A stretch of 64,000 nucleotides of DNA from Candidatus Poribacteria bacterium (GTDB lineage Bacteria; Poribacteria; WGA-4E; PCPOR2b). The notes below the pieces were generated by a model. It saw only the letters and a program-made list of their open reading frames with translations, did no database searches and had not been told where the DNA came from. The stretch covers positions 2,144,001 through 2,208,000 of the forward strand of contig OZ242351.1 in assembly GCA_965208675.1 (NCBI GenBank), given 5' to 3'. This document shows, in pieces, positions 30,973 through 48,195 of this stretch (positions within the stretch are counted from its first letter, which is position 1; every line of letters begins with the position of its first letter). Position numbers and translations under genes: made by a program.

Positions 30973-32001
30973 ATGTCTAATTCCCAGAGGAACGACAGCG
31001 AAAAGGTTGATCTCTCGATTGTAATTCCCGTATTCAATGAGGAGGAGAATCTCCACGACCTTTACAGCCGACTAACAGATGCGCTTTCAAAACTCAAGAA
31101 AACGTATGAAATCATCTTCATTGACGATGGAAGCACCGATCTCAGCTTTAAGATATTGCGAGAGATTGCTCAGACGCATACCAATATTCGCGCTATACGA
31201 TTTCGCCGAAACTTCGGGCAGACGGCTGCGATGAGTGCGGGCTTCGATTATGCATGCGGCGAAGTGATTGTTCCGATGGATGCCGATCTCCAGAACGACC
31301 CTTTAGACGTAGAACGGCTGCTAGAGAAATTAGATGACGGCTACGACATTGTCAGCGGGTGGAGAGCGAATCGGCAAGACGGATTTTTTCTGCGCCGCAT
31401 CCCATCAATTCTCGCAAATCGCCTAATCTCCTGGATGACGGGCGTTTACCTCCACGACTTTGGATGTACCTTGAAAGCCTACCGACGTGAGATACTCGAA
31501 AATATTAACCTGTACGGTGAATTGCACCGTTTTATCCCGGCATTTGCAAAACTGATTGGCGCTCGAATGGCGGAAATCAAGGTAAGGCATCACCCACGTG
31601 CACGCGGGAAATCGAAGTACGGCATTTCTCGCACAATTCGGGTCATTTTGGATCTCATCACAGTTAAGTTTCTTATGAGTTATTCAACGCGTCCAATCCA
31701 GATATTTGGCCTAGTTGGCTTAATCTTCTTCCTCGCAGGAATCAGCATTTGCGGTTATCTTACCATTGGCAAATTGTTTTTCCCGGCGGGAGTTGAATCA
31801 GGCTTTTTGTCCTATCTTTTTGCCGCCACGGGAGAGCGTGGATTTAGTCTAGTTGAACGTATGCCAATGCTGATTTTGGGCGTGCTACTTCTGTTTACAG
31901 GCATCCAGTTCATCACAATGGGACTTATAGGAGAACTGGTAATTAGGACTTACCACGAATCTCAGAAGAAGCCGATTTACGTCATCCGCGACATCATCTG
32001 A
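30973..32001 (+). CDS. GT2 polyprenol-phosphate glycosyltransferase (ArnC/GtrB-like)
   Basis: SIVIPVFNE, IDDGSTD, RNFGQTAA, MDADLQND, two C-terminal TM helices. Confidence 0.9.
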   Translation: MSNSQRNDSEKVDLSIVIPVFNEEENLHDLYSRLTDALSKLKKTYEIIFIDDGSTDLSFKILREIAQTHTNIRAIRFRRNFGQTAAMSAGFDYACGEVIVPMDADLQNDPLDVERLLEKLDDGYDIVSGWRANRQDGFFLRRIPSILANRLISWMTGVYLHDFGCTLKAYRREILENINLYGELHRFIPAFAKLIGARMAEIKVRHHPRARGKSKYGISRTIRVILDLITVKFLMSYSTRPIQIFGLVGLIFFLAGISICGYLTIGKLFFPAGVESGFLSYLFAATGERGFSLVERMPMLILGVLLLFTGIQFITMGLIGELVIRTYHESQKKPIYVIRDII

Positions 32002-32145
32002 AGCTAAAGATATTCGCGCCAATGGTCAAATTTTAGACTCAATCGTTACCTCAACTGTAAGTAGAGCGGCTTATCTATCGGAATTAGTCTCGAAAATGGT
32101 TGTTTGAATACACTATCGAAGCAGTTAAAGGCATGTTTTTCGCTA

Positions 32146-32529
32146 ATGAACAATGGCTTAAGTTTTAAAATATTCCTACTACTAGTTTTTAATGTATTGT
32201 TAACAGTTGGCGGACAACTGCTACTCAAACGAGGAATGATGGCTGTGGGGCCAATTCAGTCGTTGAGAGATGCAATTCCCAAGCTTTTGCAAGCTTTTTT
32301 GAATCCATTCGTCATTGGCGGAGTTTCGGTGTACGGATTTACAATGATGGTTTGGCTCATCATATTATCTCGCGTTAGATTGAGTGTTGCCTACCCAATG
32401 ATTAGCCTCGGTTATGTACTATCAATTCTTCTGTCGTGGGTATTTCTTAAGGAATCTGTGCCCAAAATTCGAATCATCGGGGCGGTTGTAATCTGTATCG
32501 GTGTTTATCTGGTTGCCCGCAGTGACTGA
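32146..32529 (+). CDS. ArnE/ArnF-like small DMT flippase
   Basis: GQLLLK, LSVAYP, four TM helices; adjacent to the ArnC-like glycosyltransferase. Confidence 0.75.
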   Translation: MNNGLSFKIFLLLVFNVLLTVGGQLLLKRGMMAVGPIQSLRDAIPKLLQAFLNPFVIGGVSVYGFTMMVWLIILSRVRLSVAYPMISLGYVLSILLSWVFLKESVPKIRIIGAVVICIGVYLVARSD

Positions 32530-32545
32530 TACAGCGGAGGTCTAA

Positions 32546-33289
32546 GTGGCAGAGATGAGCACCGTGAAGCGATCGTACCTAGCTATGCTTTTATCAATAA
32601 TTCCAGGAATGGGCCAACTCTATTTGCGCAAACCGCTGAAGGGTTTGATTCTGTTTTTGGGAGTTCTCTCCGCGGGCGCGGTGATTTACATCAGTTCGCT
32701 CCCGGTAAATGATTGGCGTGATTTGGTGCGCTTTGATGGACTTGAAACTTGGTGGGCATCCCGGCAGGCTGACATAGAGACGCGGGAAGATGCTGGAAAG
32801 TCCGAACCTACTGCCGCGAAAGCAGAAGTATATCAAGAGCGCGATTATCATTTGTACACATTTGACGATAATTTTCTTTTTCGCATAGCACCGAAGTTCC
32901 AAAAGGATTTAGACACTAGCATCATCTCGGAAAGATTACGGCGGACATTTAAGGACAATAACATCCTACTCTCAAAGGACGCTATTGCTTCAGTAAACAA
33001 GACCAACAACCGATGGATAATTTCGCAGGGCGATCGAACTTACGCCGTCAGGAAGGTAGATGGACAGTTAAACGTTTACGCCGCCAAGAAGTTAATGTAT
33101 CGTCCCTCCTGGAAATTTAAAATCAGCGGCTTTATTCAAGGCATTGTCTTTTGGATCTACGCCATCTATGATGGATGGAAGGGCCGGAGAGGATTTAATC
33201 GGCGGGCGCTTAAGAAAAAAATGAAGAAAACTGAACAAGATACAGTAGACGAGAGCGAACAAATAAATGATGGCGCGATAAAAAGTTGA
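32546..33289 (+). CDS. Hypothetical membrane protein (IPGxGQLY type) carrying one copy of the ~70-aa insertion module
   Basis: LSIIPGMGQLY...WIYAIYD TM scaffold; GTG start after GGAGG. Confidence 0.7.
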   Translation: MAEMSTVKRSYLAMLLSIIPGMGQLYLRKPLKGLILFLGVLSAGAVIYISSLPVNDWRDLVRFDGLETWWASRQADIETREDAGKSEPTAAKAEVYQERDYHLYTFDDNFLFRIAPKFQKDLDTSIISERLRRTFKDNNILLSKDAIASVNKTNNRWIISQGDRTYAVRKVDGQLNVYAAKKLMYRPSWKFKISGFIQGIVFWIYAIYDGWKGRRGFNRRALKKKMKKTEQDTVDESEQINDGAIKS

Positions 33290-33388
33290 ATTAGCAAACG
33301 ATGGTTTTAATCGAACCGTGAGACATTAGAATATAGATGTGATGAACGAAATTTGAATACATGCGGATTAGGTCAAGAAAGGAAAATC

Positions 33389-33760
33389 ATGCCGTTTTTT
33401 GCTTCTGAGAAACTACCCAAAATGCAATTATTCCCCGGCGCGCTCAGCGGCATTGTCGCCGGCGAAAATTTGCTTCTCTCGTTCCTTGAAATGGAAGAGG
33501 GGAGTGAGGTTCCGGCGCACAGCCATCCACACGAACAAGCCGGTATTTTATTATCGGGGAAGATGCGATTCAGGATTGGTTCAGAGGAATGCCTCATGGA
33601 AGCAGGGGATGCATTCATTGTGCCCCCGGACGTGGTGCATTCGGGGAATGTAGTAGAGGGACCGGCGCGTGTTTTGGATATCTTCGCCCCACCTCGAGAA
33701 GATTACATCGACAGATACAACAAGTATTCGAGCACTTCAGGTCAGACTCTTTGGAAATAG
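33389..33760 (+). CDS. Cupin domain protein
   Basis: HSHPHEQ, GDAFIVPPDVVH, DIFAPPREDY. Confidence 0.88.
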   Translation: MPFFASEKLPKMQLFPGALSGIVAGENLLLSFLEMEEGSEVPAHSHPHEQAGILLSGKMRFRIGSEECLMEAGDAFIVPPDVVHSGNVVEGPARVLDIFAPPREDYIDRYNKYSSTSGQTLWK

Positions 33761-33857: not shown

Positions 33858-36800
33858 ATGCAATCCCAACAGTCTAACGAGCACAATCCATACCGTAAAA
33901 ACATAACCGATTCGCAATGCCCCTCTGTTAATCTCTACCCGGGCCAACAACTTCGCGGCTTTGAGGTTAAAGCCGTCACGCCAATCGACGAACTGCGAGC
34001 TACGGCTATTGAACTCGCTCATGAAAAGAGCGGCGCGCGGCTGCTGCATCTCTATTCGGAGGACACCAGAAACTGGTTTTCAATCAGTCCGATGACTCCG
34101 GCACCCGACGATACGGGTGTACAACACATTGTTGAACACTCCGTAATGTCGGGATCTCGAAACTATCCGGTCAGGGATGTGTTTTCTGAAATGATGAAGA
34201 TGAGCCTGGCAAGCTTTGACAGCGCGAACGCTATGAACGCGGTCGACCACGCCTATTACTATGCTTCAAGCAGCGTCAAAAAAGACCTATTCAATCTTGC
34301 CGAGGTCTTCTTTGATTCCGTTTTTCATGCGCTGCTGACTGAGGAAACATTCAAACGTGAAGGGCACCATCTTGAACCTGTGGATCCAAATCGACCTATG
34401 GGCGACTTAAGAATTAACGGGATTGTCTATAACGAAGTGAAAATCGGGATGTCCGACCCAAGAGAATGCTTTCATACGGCCGTGACCCGTGGACTATTGC
34501 CTAGCACATGCTATGCCAACAATGGCGCCGGAGATTCTGCGGTCATGCCGGATCTTAGCTACGAACAATTTAAAGGCTTTTACCAAACCTACTTTCATCC
34601 TCGCAACTGTTACTTCTTCTTCTACGGGAATATTCCAACAGACAATTATCTCGAGATTCTCGCTGATAAACTTGAAGCCATCCCGAAAACTGAAAAAGAT
34701 GGGCGTCTCCACCCGCTTCGACCGGAAATCACGCTCCAGCCGAAATGGCAATCTGCAAGGACGGTAAGAGACCGCTATCCGATTGGAGCAGATGAGCCGC
34801 TGACCGAAAAGACGCATCTGATGCTCAGTTGGTTAATAGGTGATGCAACGGATCCTGAGGACACCGTTTTGTGCCGAATCTTGAGTCTTCTCCTCTTCGG
34901 TAATGAGGGGGCGCCGCTCCGAAAAGCGATTGTTGATTCTAGACTAGGTACCGACGTATTCGACTACAGTTTTCTTGACGGACTCACCGGTCCCAACAGG
35001 ACCTTTCACGCCGGTCTGTTAGGAAGCGAAGTGGATCGAATTGACACGTTCACGGAATTGGTTCTCAATACATTAGTAGAAATTGCAGAATCAGATATTG
35101 ACACGGAAACGGTTGAGGCTGCGTTCCAACAACTCACATATGAATATCAAGAAGTTACGCCGAAGTTTCCGTTTCAGATGATGAAGCGAGTCATAAACGC
35201 TTGGATATATGAAAAGGAACCAACCCTCTTTCTTAAGATGGGCGCGTGCCTTTCTACTATCCGCAAACGTTGGGAGCAAAATCCCCGCATCTTCAACAAT
35301 CTGATTCGTGAGCGACTGCTGGACAACCCGCATCGATTGACGACTGTCCTTTCTCCTGATCCGCGTATGCAAGCTCGGCTTAACGCTGATGAGAATAGGC
35401 GTCTGAAAAAAATTCGCACGCAATTAAGTGATGAGCAGATGAGACAGATTGCCGCGGAAGCAGGCGAGCTAGAACGCCTAAGCGATCAACCGAACTCGCC
35501 GGAAGATCTGGCGAAGCTGCCGCAACTGCATGTCGCCGAGCTTCCGGAAAAGCCGTTGCAAATTCCCACAACTGTTGAAACAGTAAGCGGACGACCCTTG
35601 CTCCGCAGCGAAGTGTTTTCAAACGCAGTGAACTACGTGGAACTAAGTTTTGATTTACAGGGATTACCGCAGCATTTATGGAGTTACCTGCCCAGGTACA
35701 CGAATGCCATCGGTAAATTTGGCGCCGCCAAAATGGGTTACCAACAGATAGCGCAACGCATTTCGGCAGCAACCGGGGGTGTTGAATGCACTCCGACTTT
35801 TAGCACACACTCGCTTGATCCAAACCGACCTGTGTGGAACGTGCAGTTTCGATTGAAAGCGCTTGACGACAAAATTGAAGGGGCTTTGGGCGTTCTGCAA
35901 GATTTAGTTTTCGCAGCGAACCCTCACGATAAAGAGCGTTTATACGTCGTGCTCAATCAGGCAATGACAGGATTTCGGACCTACATGCAGGGTTATCGCG
36001 GCCCAAATATAGCCAACCATCATGCTGCACGCGGGTTTTCGCCGCAGGCATACCTATCGGAAATAGTCTTTGGACTTCCTCAGCTGCGTAGGATTGAAAA
36101 CCTGCTCAATCGATTTGACGAATGCCATGAAGAATTCAGTGATTACCTTGCACAGATTCGAGATTTCCTGTTGGTACGAGGTCGCGTCACGGCGAGTTTT
36201 ACGGGCACTGATAAAGCGTATGGAGTGTTTCAAAGAAAATTCAAAGAGTGGATTGGCAGTATGCGTGACGAGTCGTTAACGCCGGCATCAACAGGATTCA
36301 AACCTTTTGAGAAATGTCCGCGCGAAGGAATGGCGGCTCCCGTCGATGTAGCGTACTGCACGCAAGTTATGCCGGCGCTGCACTACTTGCACAAAGACTC
36401 AAGCCTTTTGACTGTTGGGGCGAATATCGTGGCATATGACTATGCGTTCAAGGAAATCCGTCTCAAAGGGAACGCCTATTATGGATGGTTCGCTTACAAC
36501 CCATTTGAAGGCTGCGTATACCATGACTCCTTCGCTGATCCGCACATTGCTCGTACGCTAGACGTTTTCTCACGGACTGCTGACTATGTCAGAAATTCGG
36601 AGTGGACGCAGACCGATATCAATCATTCGATTATTTCGAGAGCGGGGGATTTCCAAAAGACACTCCGACCCAGCCACGCCGCAGCCGATGCGCTCGCGAA
36701 TCATCTCACAGGTCAGACGCAGGAAGTTATTGAAGAAAAATATGACCAACTGCGAAGTGCAACTCCTGGGGAGGCCAAGCGGGCAATGCTCCAAGTTCTT

Positions 36801-36911
36801 GAGGAAAATCGGGATAAAGCCTCGGTTTGCGTCGTGGCGAGCCGCGAGAAACTAGAAGCCGAAAACAAGAAAATGGCAAATCCTTTGCGCATTGAGGACA
36901 TTTTCGAATAG
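33858..36911 (+). CDS. M16C metallopeptidase (presequence protease/PreP-like)
   Basis: Inverted zinc motif HIVEHSV, ETFKREG, GIVYNE, YFHPRN. Confidence 0.88.
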   Translation: MQSQQSNEHNPYRKNITDSQCPSVNLYPGQQLRGFEVKAVTPIDELRATAIELAHEKSGARLLHLYSEDTRNWFSISPMTPAPDDTGVQHIVEHSVMSGSRNYPVRDVFSEMMKMSLASFDSANAMNAVDHAYYYASSSVKKDLFNLAEVFFDSVFHALLTEETFKREGHHLEPVDPNRPMGDLRINGIVYNEVKIGMSDPRECFHTAVTRGLLPSTCYANNGAGDSAVMPDLSYEQFKGFYQTYFHPRNCYFFFYGNIPTDNYLEILADKLEAIPKTEKDGRLHPLRPEITLQPKWQSARTVRDRYPIGADEPLTEKTHLMLSWLIGDATDPEDTVLCRILSLLLFGNEGAPLRKAIVDSRLGTDVFDYSFLDGLTGPNRTFHAGLLGSEVDRIDTFTELVLNTLVEIAESDIDTETVEAAFQQLTYEYQEVTPKFPFQMMKRVINAWIYEKEPTLFLKMGACLSTIRKRWEQNPRIFNNLIRERLLDNPHRLTTVLSPDPRMQARLNADENRRLKKIRTQLSDEQMRQIAAEAGELERLSDQPNSPEDLAKLPQLHVAELPEKPLQIPTTVETVSGRPLLRSEVFSNAVNYVELSFDLQGLPQHLWSYLPRYTNAIGKFGAAKMGYQQIAQRISAATGGVECTPTFSTHSLDPNRPVWNVQFRLKALDDKIEGALGVLQDLVFAANPHDKERLYVVLNQAMTGFRTYMQGYRGPNIANHHAARGFSPQAYLSEIVFGLPQLRRIENLLNRFDECHEEFSDYLAQIRDFLLVRGRVTASFTGTDKAYGVFQRKFKEWIGSMRDESLTPASTGFKPFEKCPREGMAAPVDVAYCTQVMPALHYLHKDSSLLTVGANIVAYDYAFKEIRLKGNAYYGWFAYNPFEGCVYHDSFADPHIARTLDVFSRTADYVRNSEWTQTDINHSIISRAGDFQKTLRPSHAAADALANHLTGQTQEVIEEKYDQLRSATPGEAKRAMLQVLEENRDKASVCVVASREKLEAENKKMANPLRIEDIFE

Positions 36912-43010: not shown

Positions 43011-46000
43011 CTATCCCGCACGGTGATAGCCATGCCCTTCACCGGTAATTTGGTATAGGGCATCCGCTGTCCAGAAATGCACCTCAGGATCGTCATCGTC
43101 CAAAGCCGTTTCGAGCACAGATATAGCACCTTGATGCTTTGACGCGGCAAGTCCCTTGATGATGTCTAACCTCAAATTCTTGGTCGTCTGATTCACCGGA
43201 AGCGATTTCAGTTTTTCAATCAATGCCGAAACGGCGGCGTCAGTCCCTATTTTTCCAAGTGCAATTGCGGCATCGCGGCGAATCTCTTCATGATTGGTTT
43301 CAGTGTTGAAGACATCTATAAGATCGGGCACGGTGGAGGCGTCTGCGAATTCACCTACACCTTGCGTGGCTCCGCGCCGCACATCTTTATCCGATTCTGT
43401 TTCACCTTTCATAATTTTCACAATTTCATCTTGAAATTCTCGAAGCTTGCCTTCACCAATTCCAAGCGCTGTGGACTGGCGGACTTCTTTTTTCTTGTCA
43501 TTCAGCAGTTCTCTAAGCTTCGATATGGCTTCCGGGGTTTTGGACCTTCCAAGCGCATTGGCGGCTGCGGCCTTAATGGGCCAACTTTCAGGTTTACTAC
43601 TCTCGACTCGCTCAATCATCTTGTTCGCCACGAAGGGTGACAATTGAAACGGTTTGGAGGCACTGACGAACGCCTCAAACACAGGGTTGTGGGTAAATGT
43701 ATCCGGTGTTATCGTCACGCTATATTCAGTGTCGTCAACGAGCCGCCTGCTTATTGATTCAGCCGCACGGCTATCCCCAATTGCCGCGAGCGCGTCGGCG
43801 GCAATCGTACGGGTGTCCGACTCCAGGCTTCGATCTTCGAGAATAGCTATCAATTCCGTCACGGCTTCACGACTTTTGAGTTTGCCAAGCGCCGTAATAA
43901 CGCTCTTGTGGACAGTTCCGGTTTCTGCTCTAAAAATGCGAAGGATTGCCGCTTCCGAGCTGCGGTCGCCAATCAAACCGAGTGCAGTTACACAAGCCGT
44001 CCGCACCGATGTATCCTCTAGAGGGTTATGGAGGATTTCAATTAGTTTATTGACAGCGTTTGCCCCTTTGATAACGCCCAATGCTGTTGCAGCCTGCAAC
44101 CGAACTTCAGCGTTCTCATCGTCTAACGCAGCAAGGAGCGGAACGGAAGCACGTTCGTCACGCAACTTCGCCAATGACGCGGCTGCCGCCGCTCGAATTG
44201 ACTTTGACTCATTCGTATTTTCAAGCACCGCAGTTAAGTCGGCAACAGCACTTCGATCTTTGAGTTTTCCAAGTGCAGCCACTGCCTCTTTGCGAACAAG
44301 GTAGCTCTGATTTGCCATCTCCTCACGTATCGCAGCCATTAAGTTTTGATGCAGCGCCGGCGTCATTGTTACCTTGTCGGACGTCCCCCGGATTTCTCCG
44401 ATTGTATGTACAACTGCCCAGCGTATCCATTCTTCATCATCGTGGACGGATTTCAGCGCATCAAGCAGCCAATTGATTGTAGACGCATTACCATCTTTGA
44501 CGAGTGAAGCAATCACTTCATTCATTACGGATTGGACTTCGTGCTTTTCTTCAAAGGGCCCTAAGCCTTTTTTCAACACATCGACCAACCCGCTGTCAGC
44601 TAATTCTTGCTTTAGTTCACGCAAAGTGATTGCGGCTTGTTTACGAGTTTTTTCAAACTTGTCCCTTTTGAGAGATGTTAGCAAAGGACCGACCACCTTT
44701 TCCCCTTTGATTTTGTTTAACGCAGCCGCAGCCTCTTGCCGCACAATGCCGTGCTCATCATTCTTGAGCGCATCAATCAAGTGGGAAATAACGGATTCTC
44801 CGTTGATATCTCCTAAAGCTAGCGCAGCACTCCGGCGAACGGCTGCACGCTCGTCGTCCTTCAGGGCGTGAAACAGCGCATCCAGTACTTGGTCACCTTG
44901 GGTGTAGACGTTTAGGCTTTCACCGACTTTCCGGAAATGGTACCGCTGCTGGTTTTCTTTATCGGTTACAAACCAAATTTCGCCTGCCCGCTCGACTACA
45001 ATAGTTGGGTTTTGAGAGAGTGCGATTTCTTTATCTTTAAGTGCATGCCGTAAATTTTCCGGAATCTTGCCACTGTTTAGATCTGTGACATACTCGGCTA
45101 ATTGAGCGCTGGAAAACAGTAATTTTCCTCTAATCTTGCCCAGTGAGATGGCTGCCTCGCTTCGGACAAGACCGGGAATCGGCTTTAATTCTCCCCACTT
45201 TTGATAATCAGGTTGCGGATATTCAGGCGTCCATTGAATACCTAAGGCATCAACAGCAACGCCCAATGCCTCAAGGGTCTTATGTTGCCTTTTCATGTGC
45301 CGTTGGAAATCCTTGACATCTTCGTAGCGTGTTGACAAAACCCATAAAAGCGCAGACACTGTTTCTTGTGCTTTAATTTCTCCCAAAACTGCCGCTGCGT
45401 CTTTTCGAATAATTTCACTGGTCTCATCGCTGAACATCAACTGCATCATTGGCTGAACCGCTTGGTTTGTCTCGAGTTGACTTAATGCGGAAAGCGCCGC
45501 CCTCCTTATCGTCTCGCGTCCACGTTTGTTCATCGCCATTGCGATGAGTTTGCTAATTGCCCGCTCACTCTCATTGTTGATGTTGCCGAGTGCGACGGCA
45601 GCGTTAGTTGCAGTGGTATCATCTAAATCAAGGGCGTCAGTCAGTGCATCAACAGCGATGTTGTTCCTACCAGGGGTTTTCATCGTGCCGAGGGCTTTAG
45701 CCGCAGCCGCTTTGACTTCCTTTCTGGGATCGCTCTTTAGAGATTCGCTGAGGGAGGGTAACGTTCGCAAATCTCCAATCAAGTCCATGACCTCGGCGGT
45801 CCGAATCCTGATAAAATCCCTGGAAACTTTTAGGTTACCCGCGTCTTTTCTGACATTATAGGTTCTTTTTTTATGATGTTTACTTTTATCAGTTATCAAC
45901 CATTTGCTGTCTTCTTCCTCAAGAAAAATGGATACATTTTCAGAAACGGCGAATCCGTTATTTTCCAACACCCGTTTTAAATTCGCCGAGACGTATCCGT

Positions 46001-47306
46001 TGTTTAGATCGTTCTGGAACTCCGTGCTGATAAGAAATGACGGATAACGCAGCGCTTGAATCAGATGGGGAACAGCAACTTCCTTCATTACGGCCAACGC
46101 ACTAGCTACCTCTCCATGTAAATCATCGTTTTCAAAAAGATTGATTAGCCGTGCAACGGCACTCTTGGCTCTCAGGGCACCAAGGGTCTGAATCGCTGCG
46201 GCTTGGGTGCTGATTCGGCGGTTTTTCAGCCGGTCTGTATCAATATAGACATTTGCAATGTACTGATACTCATTCCTGAAATTAGGTTCGTCATCTTCCT
46301 CTGGAATTACGTTCCTAGCCCCTGAGTCCAATACTTCAATCAATGGATCAATTGATAACGGTCCAATCTGGATCAGTGCGGTCATTGCGCTGTTTTTGAC
46401 GTGTTCATTGGCATCTGCGAGCAACCGGACTAGATCTACTATGGAATCTTCTGACTTCAGTATACCGAGCAGCTTTGCGGATAACATACGCACCTGTGCG
46501 ACGTTAGTCCTTGTGGCAAGCTTCAGTGCGGGAATAATGCTTTGCTGGTCTTTTAACCCCTCTAGCGCTACAATTGCCTCGTACAACACATCTGCCGATT
46601 CATCCTTTTTATTCAGAACGGATTCTAGCTCGCGGATGAGCCGCGGATCTTTTAAGTCTCCTAAGTGCTTTATAGCCTGTTTTCTGATGGCGGCGTCAGA
46701 ATTTTGAATTTCATTGACCATCAGATTGTAAACCAAATCTTGATTATTAAGTTGCTGAATTAGTGCGGATGATGCCTGTCGATGCTGTGGATGAAAGCAA
46801 TTTTCCGCCTCCAGCAACGCCGTGATGACAACGGAATTTGGTTGACTCGCTAAGGTTGAAATGAGTTGTGTGTTTTGCTCGGCGGCTTCCGCGAGCGCGT
46901 TTGCGAAGGCACCAACAATCGAGTTTCGAGATCGAACAAGCCATTCGAGTTGGTCCAACTCATCCGAATCTGGATCCTCAAGCGTCTCCGATGCTTCAAT
47001 CTCATCCTTCAGGGGCTGTAAATTACCGAGAATTTTCTGAATGGCATTGTGCCAGTCAATCGCTTTCGTTTTCCAACCCTTACCTGAGGTTGCACGCAAC
47101 TGCAGTAACTCTTGCAGCGATTGGGCTTCGAGGTGATTCGGTTTGCTCGAAATCACGGCTTGTATCGCTGTTTGAGCAACGGTATAATTTGCATCATCCA
47201 TCGCCTTCCGCGCTTCTAGCAAGTCTTCATCCTCTTTTTCTCCACACCCAGCGAGTAAACCGATAATTAAACCAAAACTGATAGACAGGAGAAACCTGCG
47301 TTTCAT
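43011..47306 (-). CDS. Giant HEAT (PBS-lyase type) repeat lipoprotein with two inserted ~70-aa modules
   Basis: Lipoprotein signal MKRRFLLS...LLAGC after AAGGAG; more than 20 HEAT repeats of the VRxxAAxALG type. Confidence 0.88.
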   Translation of the reverse strand: MKRRFLLSISFGLIIGLLAGCGEKEDEDLLEARKAMDDANYTVAQTAIQAVISSKPNHLEAQSLQELLQLRATSGKGWKTKAIDWHNAIQKILGNLQPLKDEIEASETLEDPDSDELDQLEWLVRSRNSIVGAFANALAEAAEQNTQLISTLASQPNSVVITALLEAENCFHPQHRQASSALIQQLNNQDLVYNLMVNEIQNSDAAIRKQAIKHLGDLKDPRLIRELESVLNKKDESADVLYEAIVALEGLKDQQSIIPALKLATRTNVAQVRMLSAKLLGILKSEDSIVDLVRLLADANEHVKNSAMTALIQIGPLSIDPLIEVLDSGARNVIPEEDDEPNFRNEYQYIANVYIDTDRLKNRRISTQAAAIQTLGALRAKSAVARLINLFENDDLHGEVASALAVMKEVAVPHLIQALRYPSFLISTEFQNDLNNGYVSANLKRVLENNGFAVSENVSIFLEEEDSKWLITDKSKHHKKRTYNVRKDAGNLKVSRDFIRIRTAEVMDLIGDLRTLPSLSESLKSDPRKEVKAAAAKALGTMKTPGRNNIAVDALTDALDLDDTTATNAAVALGNINNESERAISKLIAMAMNKRGRETIRRAALSALSQLETNQAVQPMMQLMFSDETSEIIRKDAAAVLGEIKAQETVSALLWVLSTRYEDVKDFQRHMKRQHKTLEALGVAVDALGIQWTPEYPQPDYQKWGELKPIPGLVRSEAAISLGKIRGKLLFSSAQLAEYVTDLNSGKIPENLRHALKDKEIALSQNPTIVVERAGEIWFVTDKENQQRYHFRKVGESLNVYTQGDQVLDALFHALKDDERAAVRRSAALALGDINGESVISHLIDALKNDEHGIVRQEAAAALNKIKGEKVVGPLLTSLKRDKFEKTRKQAAITLRELKQELADSGLVDVLKKGLGPFEEKHEVQSVMNEVIASLVKDGNASTINWLLDALKSVHDDEEWIRWAVVHTIGEIRGTSDKVTMTPALHQNLMAAIREEMANQSYLVRKEAVAALGKLKDRSAVADLTAVLENTNESKSIRAAAAASLAKLRDERASVPLLAALDDENAEVRLQAATALGVIKGANAVNKLIEILHNPLEDTSVRTACVTALGLIGDRSSEAAILRIFRAETGTVHKSVITALGKLKSREAVTELIAILEDRSLESDTRTIAADALAAIGDSRAAESISRRLVDDTEYSVTITPDTFTHNPVFEAFVSASKPFQLSPFVANKMIERVESSKPESWPIKAAAANALGRSKTPEAISKLRELLNDKKKEVRQSTALGIGEGKLREFQDEIVKIMKGETESDKDVRRGATQGVGEFADASTVPDLIDVFNTETNHEEIRRDAAIALGKIGTDAAVSALIEKLKSLPVNQTTKNLRLDIIKGLAASKHQGAISVLETALDDDDPEVHFWTADALYQITGEGHGYHRAG

Positions 47307-47442
47307 TTGCGAACTCCTTTCGATTCGATAATGATGCAAAAATGAAGGCATGATGCGTGAAATGCGACGTGCAAAACGTGGGAAAATATTACCATTCTGC
47401 CTCTTAACGAGTGTCAATCGATAACCTAATGTATATGTATTT

Positions 47443-48195
47443 TTAAATGTTGAGGTTGTCAATGAATTTTAAGCTCTTCAAATCGCGCTCAATATGATAT
47501 GAGATAAAGGTCGCAAGCACAAACTTCAGTTCACGATGATTTAGAATTGATGCGCGAAATCTCCCCAAACGCGATAGACTAGATTTTTGGAGTTGCTGCA
47601 TTAACTGACAACTTCCTCTTGAAACCGCAATTGCATTCGCATCACGATCGCTACACCTCACACAGAGCATTCCGCCAAAACGAGAACTAAAATGCAACGT
47701 GGCATCCTTGAAGGCGTGGGTACAAGCCACACAGTGGGAAAGCTGCGGCGACAATCCCGCTAAGCCAAGCAATTGTAACTCGAAAGCACGCGCAAATAAC
47801 GCAATATCATCGACTTGCGCCATGGTTTCAAATCCGTGCTGCAGCAGGTGAAAAATCTGTTGGTCGACCGAATGATCGGACTCAATTGCGCCAATAAGTT
47901 CCGCGAGATAACAGCCGTAAATTGTTCGATCGAAATCTGCTTTGATTCCTTCAAAGGAACTAATCAAGTCAAAGTCATTGACAATCTGCAAATCTTTGTT
48001 CGGACGCTCAAAAAACACTAAGGTACCGTAATTCAGGAGTTCAAGACCTCCTGCCAAACGACTTTTCGGTCGTCTGACGCCTCGGGCAACAGCTTTAATC
48101 TTACCAAACTCGGCGGTATAAAAAGTGATGATTTTATCAGATTCACGGAGAGGATAAAATCGAATGACAATCGCAGGTGTTTTTTGGACTGGCAT
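47443..48195 (-). CDS. recO: DNA repair protein RecO
   Basis: ESDKIITFYT...GKIKAVARGVRRPKSR, zinc finger CVAC/CVRC, LKSLKF. Confidence 0.93.
   Translation of the reverse strand: MPVQKTPAIVIRFYPLRESDKIITFYTAEFGKIKAVARGVRRPKSRLAGGLELLNYGTLVFFERPNKDLQIVNDFDLISSFEGIKADFDRTIYGCYLAELIGAIESDHSVDQQIFHLLQHGFETMAQVDDIALFARAFELQLLGLAGLSPQLSHCVACTHAFKDATLHFSSRFGGMLCVRCSDRDANAIAVSRGSCQLMQQLQKSSLSRLGRFRASILNHRELKFVLATFISYHIERDLKSLKFIDNLNI

Follow-up and report, generated by a model that had tools for sequence, protein, structure and literature searches.

A small, apparently undescribed domain inserted in frame into unrelated proteins of Poribacteria

Domain insertion is a common feature of proteins. An ECOD-based survey reports that some families act only as inserts and that inserted domains are smaller than their hosts (PMC13114784). 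The insertion domains of RNA polymerase, including BEAN, HABAS and similar ones, are characterized in PMC11515920 as polyphyletic, lineage-specific and small, lying in loops of essential, conserved proteins. Passages of PMC10969869 describe the Rickettsia palindromic elements (RPEs), which occur in frame in many unrelated genes, metabolic ones included, are present or absent among orthologues, and encode a conserved peptide thought to be compatible with the structure of the host protein. Here, we address a module of about 70 amino acids (aa) in a stretch of 64,000 nucleotides (nt) from Candidatus Poribacteria bacterium (GenBank assembly GCA_965208675.1, contig OZ242351.1, positions 2144001-2208000 of the 4.89 Mb, single-contig genome G000), referred to below as the window. 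The module lies within a small membrane protein encoded at window positions 32546..33289 (+). Our reading, to which we assign a probability of roughly 0.7, is that the module is an undescribed, autonomously folding domain, spliced in frame into surface loops and hairpin turns of unrelated Poribacteria proteins, from which it can be lost cleanly. Poribacteria are bacterial symbionts of sponges.

The module shares something with each of these systems and differs from each. Aspartyl-tRNA synthetase (AspRS) and sigma-54 show exactly the A1-B-A2 pattern of inserted domains, in which the flanks are kept and the host is continuous in homologues without the segment; the gene of the small membrane protein shows it as well. 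The module is, however, about 70 aa long against a median of 115 given in PMC13114784, and it belongs to no classified family. Domain insertion itself is known; what is unusual is one small unclassified domain in at least 20 unrelated hosts per genome, across one phylum, with recurrent, precise loss. The RNA polymerase insertion domains are likewise small, lineage-specific domains in loops of essential proteins; they are tied to one host family, whereas the module is common to many unrelated hosts. With the RPEs, the module has in common a short in-frame unit in many unrelated genes and presence or absence among orthologues, as far as the passages of PMC10969869 go. The RPEs are recognizable at the DNA level, about 150 bp long, palindromic and also found in non-coding DNA, whereas the module is about 216 bp long, with about 47% nt identity between copies and no non-coding copy found, and it is conserved in the manner of a folded protein domain subject to purifying selection. 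The resemblance to the Rickettsia elements is one of analogy only.

An earlier note on this DNA, made from the letters alone, had read a 69-residue segment of the membrane protein, which is the exact translation of 32873-33079, as the third copy of a module inserted twice in a HEAT-repeat protein. The relationship is borne out. In a tblastn search of the window, the segment matches 46037-45825 (-) with 31% identity over 71 columns (E 4e-9) and 45095-44904 (-) with 33% over 64 columns (E 1e-7), the next best match being at E 0.53. The three-way alignment of the window copies holds 12 invariant columns, and the motifs that the note had listed (DL, L, S, W, Y..RK, L.V) are among them. The copy is the third in the window; genome-wide, the total reaches 25 copies in 21 proteins. 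When a profile of the window copies is run against the whole genome, 22 further matches appear at E<=0.05, the best of them from 7.8e-22 to 1e-4, and the iterated hidden Markov model (HMM) converges on 25 domains of about 72 aa in 21 open reading frames (ORFs), out of 41,978 six-frame ORFs of at least 50 aa. Since the E-values are significant in both the window and the genome, the similarity represents homology. Chance similarity among the window copies is ruled out by these E-values and by the genome-wide profile matches. Judging from the alignments, the module of the membrane protein and the two HEAT inserts should have a common fold. The features concerned are as follows.

32546..33289, + strand: host gene, a small membrane protein of 247 aa with a GTG start (ORF; ratio of nonsynonymous to synonymous substitution rates, dN/dS, below 1 in all regions)
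32573..32701, + strand: N-terminal hydrophobic pair, aa 10-27 and aa 34-52, with the basic loop RKPLKG between (Kyte-Doolittle maximum 2.25 at aa 34-52; AlphaFold2 (AF2) helices 11-16, 22-26 and 30-50)
32846..32872, + strand: upstream host strand YHLYTFDDN, aa 101-109, putative first hairpin arm (YHLWTFEN in insert-free orthologues; AF2 strand 104-114, with low flank confidence in the predicted local distance difference test, pLDDT)
32873..33082, + strand: inserted module, aa 110-179, predicted order beta-alpha-alpha-beta-beta-beta-beta (HMM domain E 1.9e-23; AF2; absent from 19 of 41 orthologues)
33083..33112, + strand: downstream host strand AKKLMYRPSW, aa 180-189, putative second hairpin arm (KKLMYRPSW conserved directly after the N-G turn in insert-free orthologues; AF2 strand 174-182)
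33113..33286, + strand: last predicted transmembrane (TM) helix, about aa 190-210, and basic C-terminal tail WKGRRGFNRRALKKK (AF2 helix 189-212; 8 K/R and 0 D/E in aa 211-225)
43011..47462, - strand: HEAT-repeat protein of 1483 aa with the two other window copies (HEAT_2 E 5.2e-103, 15 stretches)
45822..46043, - strand: module copy 1 in the HEAT protein (tblastn E 4e-9; HMM domain E 2.5e-22)
44901..45122, - strand: module copy 2 in the HEAT protein (tblastn E 1e-7; HMM domain E 1.6e-21)

The insertion is seen most directly in the orthologues of the host gene, which are present in 41 of 41 related genomes. Residues 110-179 are found in 22 of them and are missing from the other 19, so that the insert-free alleles expected under the earlier note do exist. 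Using working labels for families (f) and genera (g), the carriers belong to genera g1, g4, g5 and g6 of family f1, and the module-free orthologues to g2, g3 and g7 of f1 together with every sampled member of f2, f3 and f4. In four f3 genomes, the two host pieces (query 2-108 and 180-241) abut with zero nucleotides between them. Insert-free orthologues read ...GYHLWTFEN-G-KKLMYRPSWKLK..., with KKLMYRPSW after the Gly, and the window protein reads ...DYHLYTFDDN[FLFRIA...QLNVYA]AKKLMYRPSWKFK.... Because the insert-free orthologues abut at the turn, the segment is an insertion in a beta-hairpin turn, and the module replaces the single Gly of the N-G turn in the host hairpin (YHLWTFEN-G-KKLMYRPSW). 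The flanks YHLYTFDD and KKLMYRPSW had been quoted correctly and likened to a hairpin split at its turn. The insert-free orthologues agree with this, showing the N-G turn between two strand-like runs, and in the AF2 model of the full protein the strands 104-114 and 174-182 cross the junctions, continuous from host into module, at low flank confidence.

Two essential proteins tell the same story at other sites. In AspRS, query residues 16-97 align to residues 2-81 of the Thermus thermophilus enzyme (6hhv) and query residues 175-672 to residues 83-578, so that about 77 residues separate the positions matching T. thermophilus 81 and 83, in the N-terminal anticodon-binding OB domain. In sigma-54, query residues 10-170 align to residues 4-159 of PDB 8f1i and query residues 250-575 to 161-477; the split falls between residues 159 and 161, in the core-binding region. 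At four sites, the boundaries correspond to the module plus 0-9 aa.

The hosts in this genome are diverse. By Pfam, they include TamB (2282 aa), an RseP-type M50 protease with PDZ domains, a Wzy_C O-antigen-ligase-like protein, COX15/CtaA, an M23 peptidase (Peptidase_M23), UPF0182 (two copies), DUF4861, a DsbH-like thioredoxin protein, sigma-54, AspRS, two ECF-sigma fusions, a TPR protein and the HEAT protein. Six hosts have no Pfam family (E<=0.001 for the hosts outside the window). For the window host, Pfam gives only the sub-threshold, TM2-like families DUF5683 (N-terminal, E 3.2e-4, 21.2 bits against a cutoff of 26.7) and DUF6677 (E 0.037, 15 bits against a cutoff of 24.3); its nearest ESM Atlas cluster is also DUF5683 (score 0.81), a lead only. 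The family consensus is approximately LLFsi..eFQ.DLD.G.IS..LRq.F..NGI.LS.nv.ISv...gs.WlItDk.n.rtY.VrKe...LnIY, with F3, L13, S34 and W48 conserved at 90% or more. One ECF-sigma/Reg_prop fusion, G000:C1:2536895-2539102 (+), locus L014, carries three consecutive modules, two of which are partial (HMM positions 1-52 and 2-35), and this suggests that copies in a tandem array have decayed or been partly duplicated.

A short DNA element that is able to transpose could also produce such a scatter. Under this explanation, an RPE-like cassette, or one resembling a miniature inverted-repeat transposable element (MITE), is translated in frame wherever it lands, and its protein conservation is a by-product of selection for harmlessness. 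It would account for a unit with constant boundaries at many unrelated sites, essential genes included, for copy numbers of 5-41 among genomes of one order, and for the presence/absence polymorphism that a histidine kinase, described below, shows between close relatives; the RPEs, moreover, are reported in passages of PMC10969869 to lie in frame in unrelated genes and are predicted there to be compatible with protein conformation. The divergence of the copies speaks against it, as no two are near-identical. The 22 full copies in this genome (231 pairs) average 30% aa and 47% nt identity, and the closest pair, the tandem copies of UPF0182, reaches 53% aa and 62% nt. For the two genomes with the most copies, 40 of the 79 modules were compared (31 of 38 from G005, 9 of 41 from G009); no pair in this sample exceeds 59% aa, and the highest nt identity is about 74%. 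Nor does a DNA profile searched with nhmmer find any copy outside host ORFs at E<0.1, its sole new match being the tail of a copy interrupted by a TAG codon. All 25 six-frame matches lie within open frames of at least 203 aa, one of them with this in-frame TAG, and third-position GC content is 0.50 in the modules against 0.52 in their hosts.

The interrupted copy, at G000:C1:3352467-3352668 (-), locus L017, has its stop codon in the middle of the module, in a host frame of 574 aa. The orthologues in genomes G001 and G002 are intact frames of 574 aa, and the TAG in G000 may mark a pseudogene or a truncation, or stem from an error in sequencing.

Constraint at the protein level is lasting, which is a further point against mobile DNA. 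In the host gene of the window, the module has a dN/dS of 0.25 in g1 (6 pairs) and 0.10 in g5 (28 pairs); the N-terminal membrane part has 0.15 and 0.29, and the linker 0.33, so that the module is comparable to or lower than the former and below the latter. The module is under purifying selection. Tandem arrays of the module in database proteins, with up to 7 matches or up to 9 matched stretches in one protein, are also typical of ordinary domains. Taken together, we regard a transposable cassette of the RPE or MITE type as quite unlikely.

Loss is documented too. In AspRS, the module is present in 36 of 46 genomes of the phylum (g1, f2 and f3) and precisely absent from the other 10 (g5, of the same family as g1, and f5-f8). 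The sensor histidine kinase is a young case. It is 579-580 aa long with the module in genomes G001-G003, and the G000 orthologue (G000:C1:1739659-1741155, -) has 499 aa and is 93-96% identical to these; it is short by exactly 80 residues, equal to one module and about 10 aa, with one codon left between the flanks. Genomes of f3, f2 and g7 share the kinase insertion, with its signature RWL[IV]TDT.N.QRY.[VI]W, which g2, g4 and g6 lack. As the insertion has these peculiarities in common across families, it is old, and was cleanly lost several times, once very recently. Precise removal of the module can therefore leave the host gene in place. Inspection by eye of one young junction, that of the kinase copy (G002 compared with G000), showed no direct repeats, and no systematic scan for terminal inverted repeats or target-site duplications (TIR/TSD) was made. 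All other insertions are too old to keep TIR/TSD marks. As a separate observation, the 20 codons upstream of the G000 kinase junction have 78% nt identity to G002, compared with about 95% elsewhere. Two hosts specific to G000, of 383 and 1010 aa, are accessory genes without usable orthologues in the genus and are uninformative on recent gain.

Where the module resides in the cell bears on what it may do. In the window protein, it lies between the hydrophobic segments at aa 34-52 and about 190-210, as the earlier note had it. The loop at aa 27-34 contains 3 K/R and 0 D/E, and 8 K/R follow the last TM segment. Because this loop and the tail are basic, the module-bearing loop would face outwards by the positive-inside rule; that loop (aa 53-187), between the second and third membrane helices, is probably extracytoplasmic or periplasmic, and the tail probably cytoplasmic. 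The HEAT protein, read from an internal start, has a signal peptide with the lipobox LLAGC (sequence MKRRFLLSISFGLIIGLLAGCGEKE). The suggestion that all copies sit in exported regions thus fits the three in the window, that of the loop by the positive-inside rule and those of the HEAT protein by the lipobox; it fails genome-wide, where AspRS and sigma-54 carry the module.

These data invite the explanation that the module is an ordinary functional envelope domain, binding for example a component of the wall or outer layer, which was moved by conventional shuffling, the AspRS and sigma-54 copies being rare neutral accidents. Screened crudely by hydropathy, about 17 of the 21 hosts have a signal peptide or TM segment, the four without one being sigma-54, AspRS, one ECF-sigma/Reg_prop fusion and the TPR protein. 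From the biology of the families, TamB, the PDZ region of RseP, the M23 peptidase, loop 1 of CtaA, the HEAT lipoprotein and the kinase sensor would all be outside the cytoplasm; database relatives have the module N-terminal to HAMP in sensors and in giant proteins rich in CARDB or Ig domains, and the module is under purifying selection. The copies in AspRS and sigma-54 are nevertheless kept across most of the order (in AspRS, the 36 of 46 genomes already given), unlike transient accidents, and the module is repeatedly lost while the host gene stays. No ligand-binding motif was recognized, and the fold searches brought up nothing similar to LysM, SPOR, PASTA or POTRA-type domains, a result that does not imply their exclusion. 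The module is enriched in envelope proteins, yet it is not confined to them, and we consider a conventional envelope domain unlikely.

A further host may be noted in this connection. In a 312-aa protein with five hydrophobic segments, G000:C1:994316-995251 (-), locus L029, the module stands between CxxCH-like motifs (CVRCH ... CRTCH), an arrangement suggestive of a c-type cytochrome that is anchored in the membrane and has the module on its periplasmic side.

Tolerance in essential proteins could also be achieved by self-removal, the element being translated and then spliced out as inteins are. Mini-inteins are about 130 aa long, and inteins are marked by a C/S/T nucleophile both at position 1 of the intein and at position +1 of the extein, and by a C-terminal H-N. 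The module does resemble mini-inteins and Hint domains in its clean, in-frame insertion in conserved proteins and in its sporadic presence and absence among orthologues. It is half their size, however, and the residues at the 25 junctions are not conserved, with no Cys, Ser or Thr where the module begins or directly after its end, and without a terminal His-Asn; the copies start with hydrophobic L/F, end with I/V-Y and are followed by a variable +1 residue, for example DDN/FLF...VYA/AKK, EGD/LLF...VYL/GTI and NVA/SLF...IYG/ITL (slashes mark the junctions). No Hint or intein match was found by Pfam on any host or module. The module also occurs in tandem arrays and at the extreme N-terminus of the TPR protein. 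An intein-like element is highly improbable.

The reading as an inserted domain relies on the module folding on its own. An AF2 model of the isolated module, based on a 22-row alignment, has a pLDDT of 94.9 and a predicted template modelling score of 0.81, with a strand at 3-5, helices at 9-14 and 20-28, and strands at 38-42, 47-52, 55-62 and 65-69. The module is thus predicted to fold autonomously. Its element order is similar to that of POTRA domains, a likeness that the fold searches did not confirm. Pfam gives no match for the window module, and only 12 singleton matches (E 0.008-0.21) among the 22 copies, none of them common to the copies; NCBIfam gives 2 singletons only among the same 22, PHROGs and PADLOC give no match for the copies, and no Pfam family covers the module in scans of the host proteins. 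Against the PDB, the best sequence-profile match has E 0.18, and Foldseek finds nothing at E<=1e-3 (best E 0.81). VIA-align against 48,161 chains gives a best Z of 4.2 and none at Z>=5, values which are no proof of a new fold; no solved fold, with POTRA-like (beta-alpha-alpha-beta-beta), PepSY and KA1 as examples, stood clearly above background. The family is absent from the libraries searched and is uncurated. Two ESM Atlas leads, UCP014422 (PF27709) and SWIM, with scores of 0.79-0.85 and low recognition, were dropped for want of Pfam support.

How such a domain might enter so many proteins can be sketched as follows. The first and last strands of the module would continue the arms of the host hairpin, forming a stalk with a globular head, and in-frame splicing into a hairpin turn or loop would leave the host fold undisturbed. 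New copies would arise rarely, by in-frame DNA insertion or recombination of a domain-sized cassette without an active transposon, and selection would remove all events except those compatible with a loop. The module itself is probably a non-catalytic binding or display module, or nearly neutral, and would be dispensable for the core function of the host.

Several points weigh against this account. That the termini of the module are adjacent and its terminal strands paired is suggested by DSSP strings and by the insert-free hairpin sequence, and the AF2 model of the full host protein is poor, with a mean pLDDT of 64 and values below 50 in the flanks 82-105 and 183-187. The module may still belong to a distant known fold despite the fold searches. 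No ligand, partner or catalytic motif emerged for it, the conserved positions F3, L13, S34 and W48 look structural, and its presence in both cytoplasmic and exported hosts argues against a single compartment-specific role. In the host gene, the tree (154 columns, weak) requires 2 changes of module state and is also compatible with a single origin, and, given the recurrent loss at other sites, the pattern seen today may combine an older gain with losses that came afterwards. Finally, selection alone may be insufficient as the cause of the constant boundaries.

A different idea is that the module is a domain-sized selfish or semi-selfish cassette that spreads in frame by a mechanism with defined ends, has a fold whose meeting termini make it harmless in hairpin turns, and is shed by precise deletion. 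It would be the domain-level counterpart of the RPEs across a whole phylum, reaching even the essential AspRS and rpoN; in a variant, the module would serve as a common handle for a Poribacteria-specific system. We hold this idea tentatively, as rather unlikely, next to the preferred reading of a rarely inserted, loop-compatible domain.

The family is spread throughout the phylum and beyond the genomes studied here. The module is present in all 41 relatives from one order, with the 5-41 matches per genome mentioned above; the two richest genomes, G005 (38) and G009 (41), are both 7.3 Mb in size. Across the phylum, 117 of 121 sampled genomes contain it. The four module-free genomes belong to families f5 and f6, are 89-95% complete, and at 3.6-4.3 Mb are among the smaller genomes of the set; a fifth genome, of f5, shows a single weak match (E 3.9e-7). 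A profile search among 1.84 billion database proteins returned 2,643 representatives at E<=1e-3, of which 1,031 reach E<=1e-10. Of the 150 top-ranking ones, 136 contain at least two copies, and the figures of up to 7 matches (by re-scan) and up to 9 matched stretches given above come from this group. In 25 of these proteins scanned with Pfam, the partners include pentapeptide repeats, CARDB, HAMP-SpoIIE, cNMP-binding, Wzy_C with TPR, and Baseplate_J. The top match, P0001, was not found in the 121 Poribacteria genomes (E<=1e-30), which hints at, short of demonstrating, an origin outside the phylum. A tblastn search of the four-module protein P0005 against plasmids gave no match. In the database proteins P0087, P0118 and P0057, two module copies of the same protein are 85-93% identical. 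Some organisms have therefore duplicated the module in tandem recently, a pattern not shared by the Poribacteria examined.

No description of the module was found in the literature on Poribacteria domains and insertions (including PMC3909097, supplements aside). The sites of insertion include the anticodon-binding OB domain of AspRS, the core-binding region of sigma-54, RseP, TamB and haem A synthase. Such a set offers a natural test of where the loops of conserved proteins can accommodate an insert that folds, and makes the module a candidate scaffold for engineered loop display. For Pfam and ECOD curation, it offers a defined family of 2,643 representative proteins without a model, and for annotation, it accounts for split domain matches and length outliers in Poribacteria proteomes. 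A dedicated mechanism of insertion, should there be one, would add a new route by which bacterial proteins evolve.

The surroundings of the host gene in the window may be described briefly. On its 5' side lie a glycosyltransferase of family 2 at 30973-32001 (+), with Glycos_transf_2 at E 4e-34, and a 141-aa EamA-type half-transporter at 32104-32529 (+), which is separated from the host gene by a gap of 16 nt (32530-32545). A cupin protein follows downstream at 33353-33760 (+). The region 30973-33760 (+) may be an operon for an envelope glycolipid, of the type that combines GtrB/ArnC with a small flippase. Directly 3' of the cupin gene, the window contains an ORF of 1017 aa at 33858-36911 (+).

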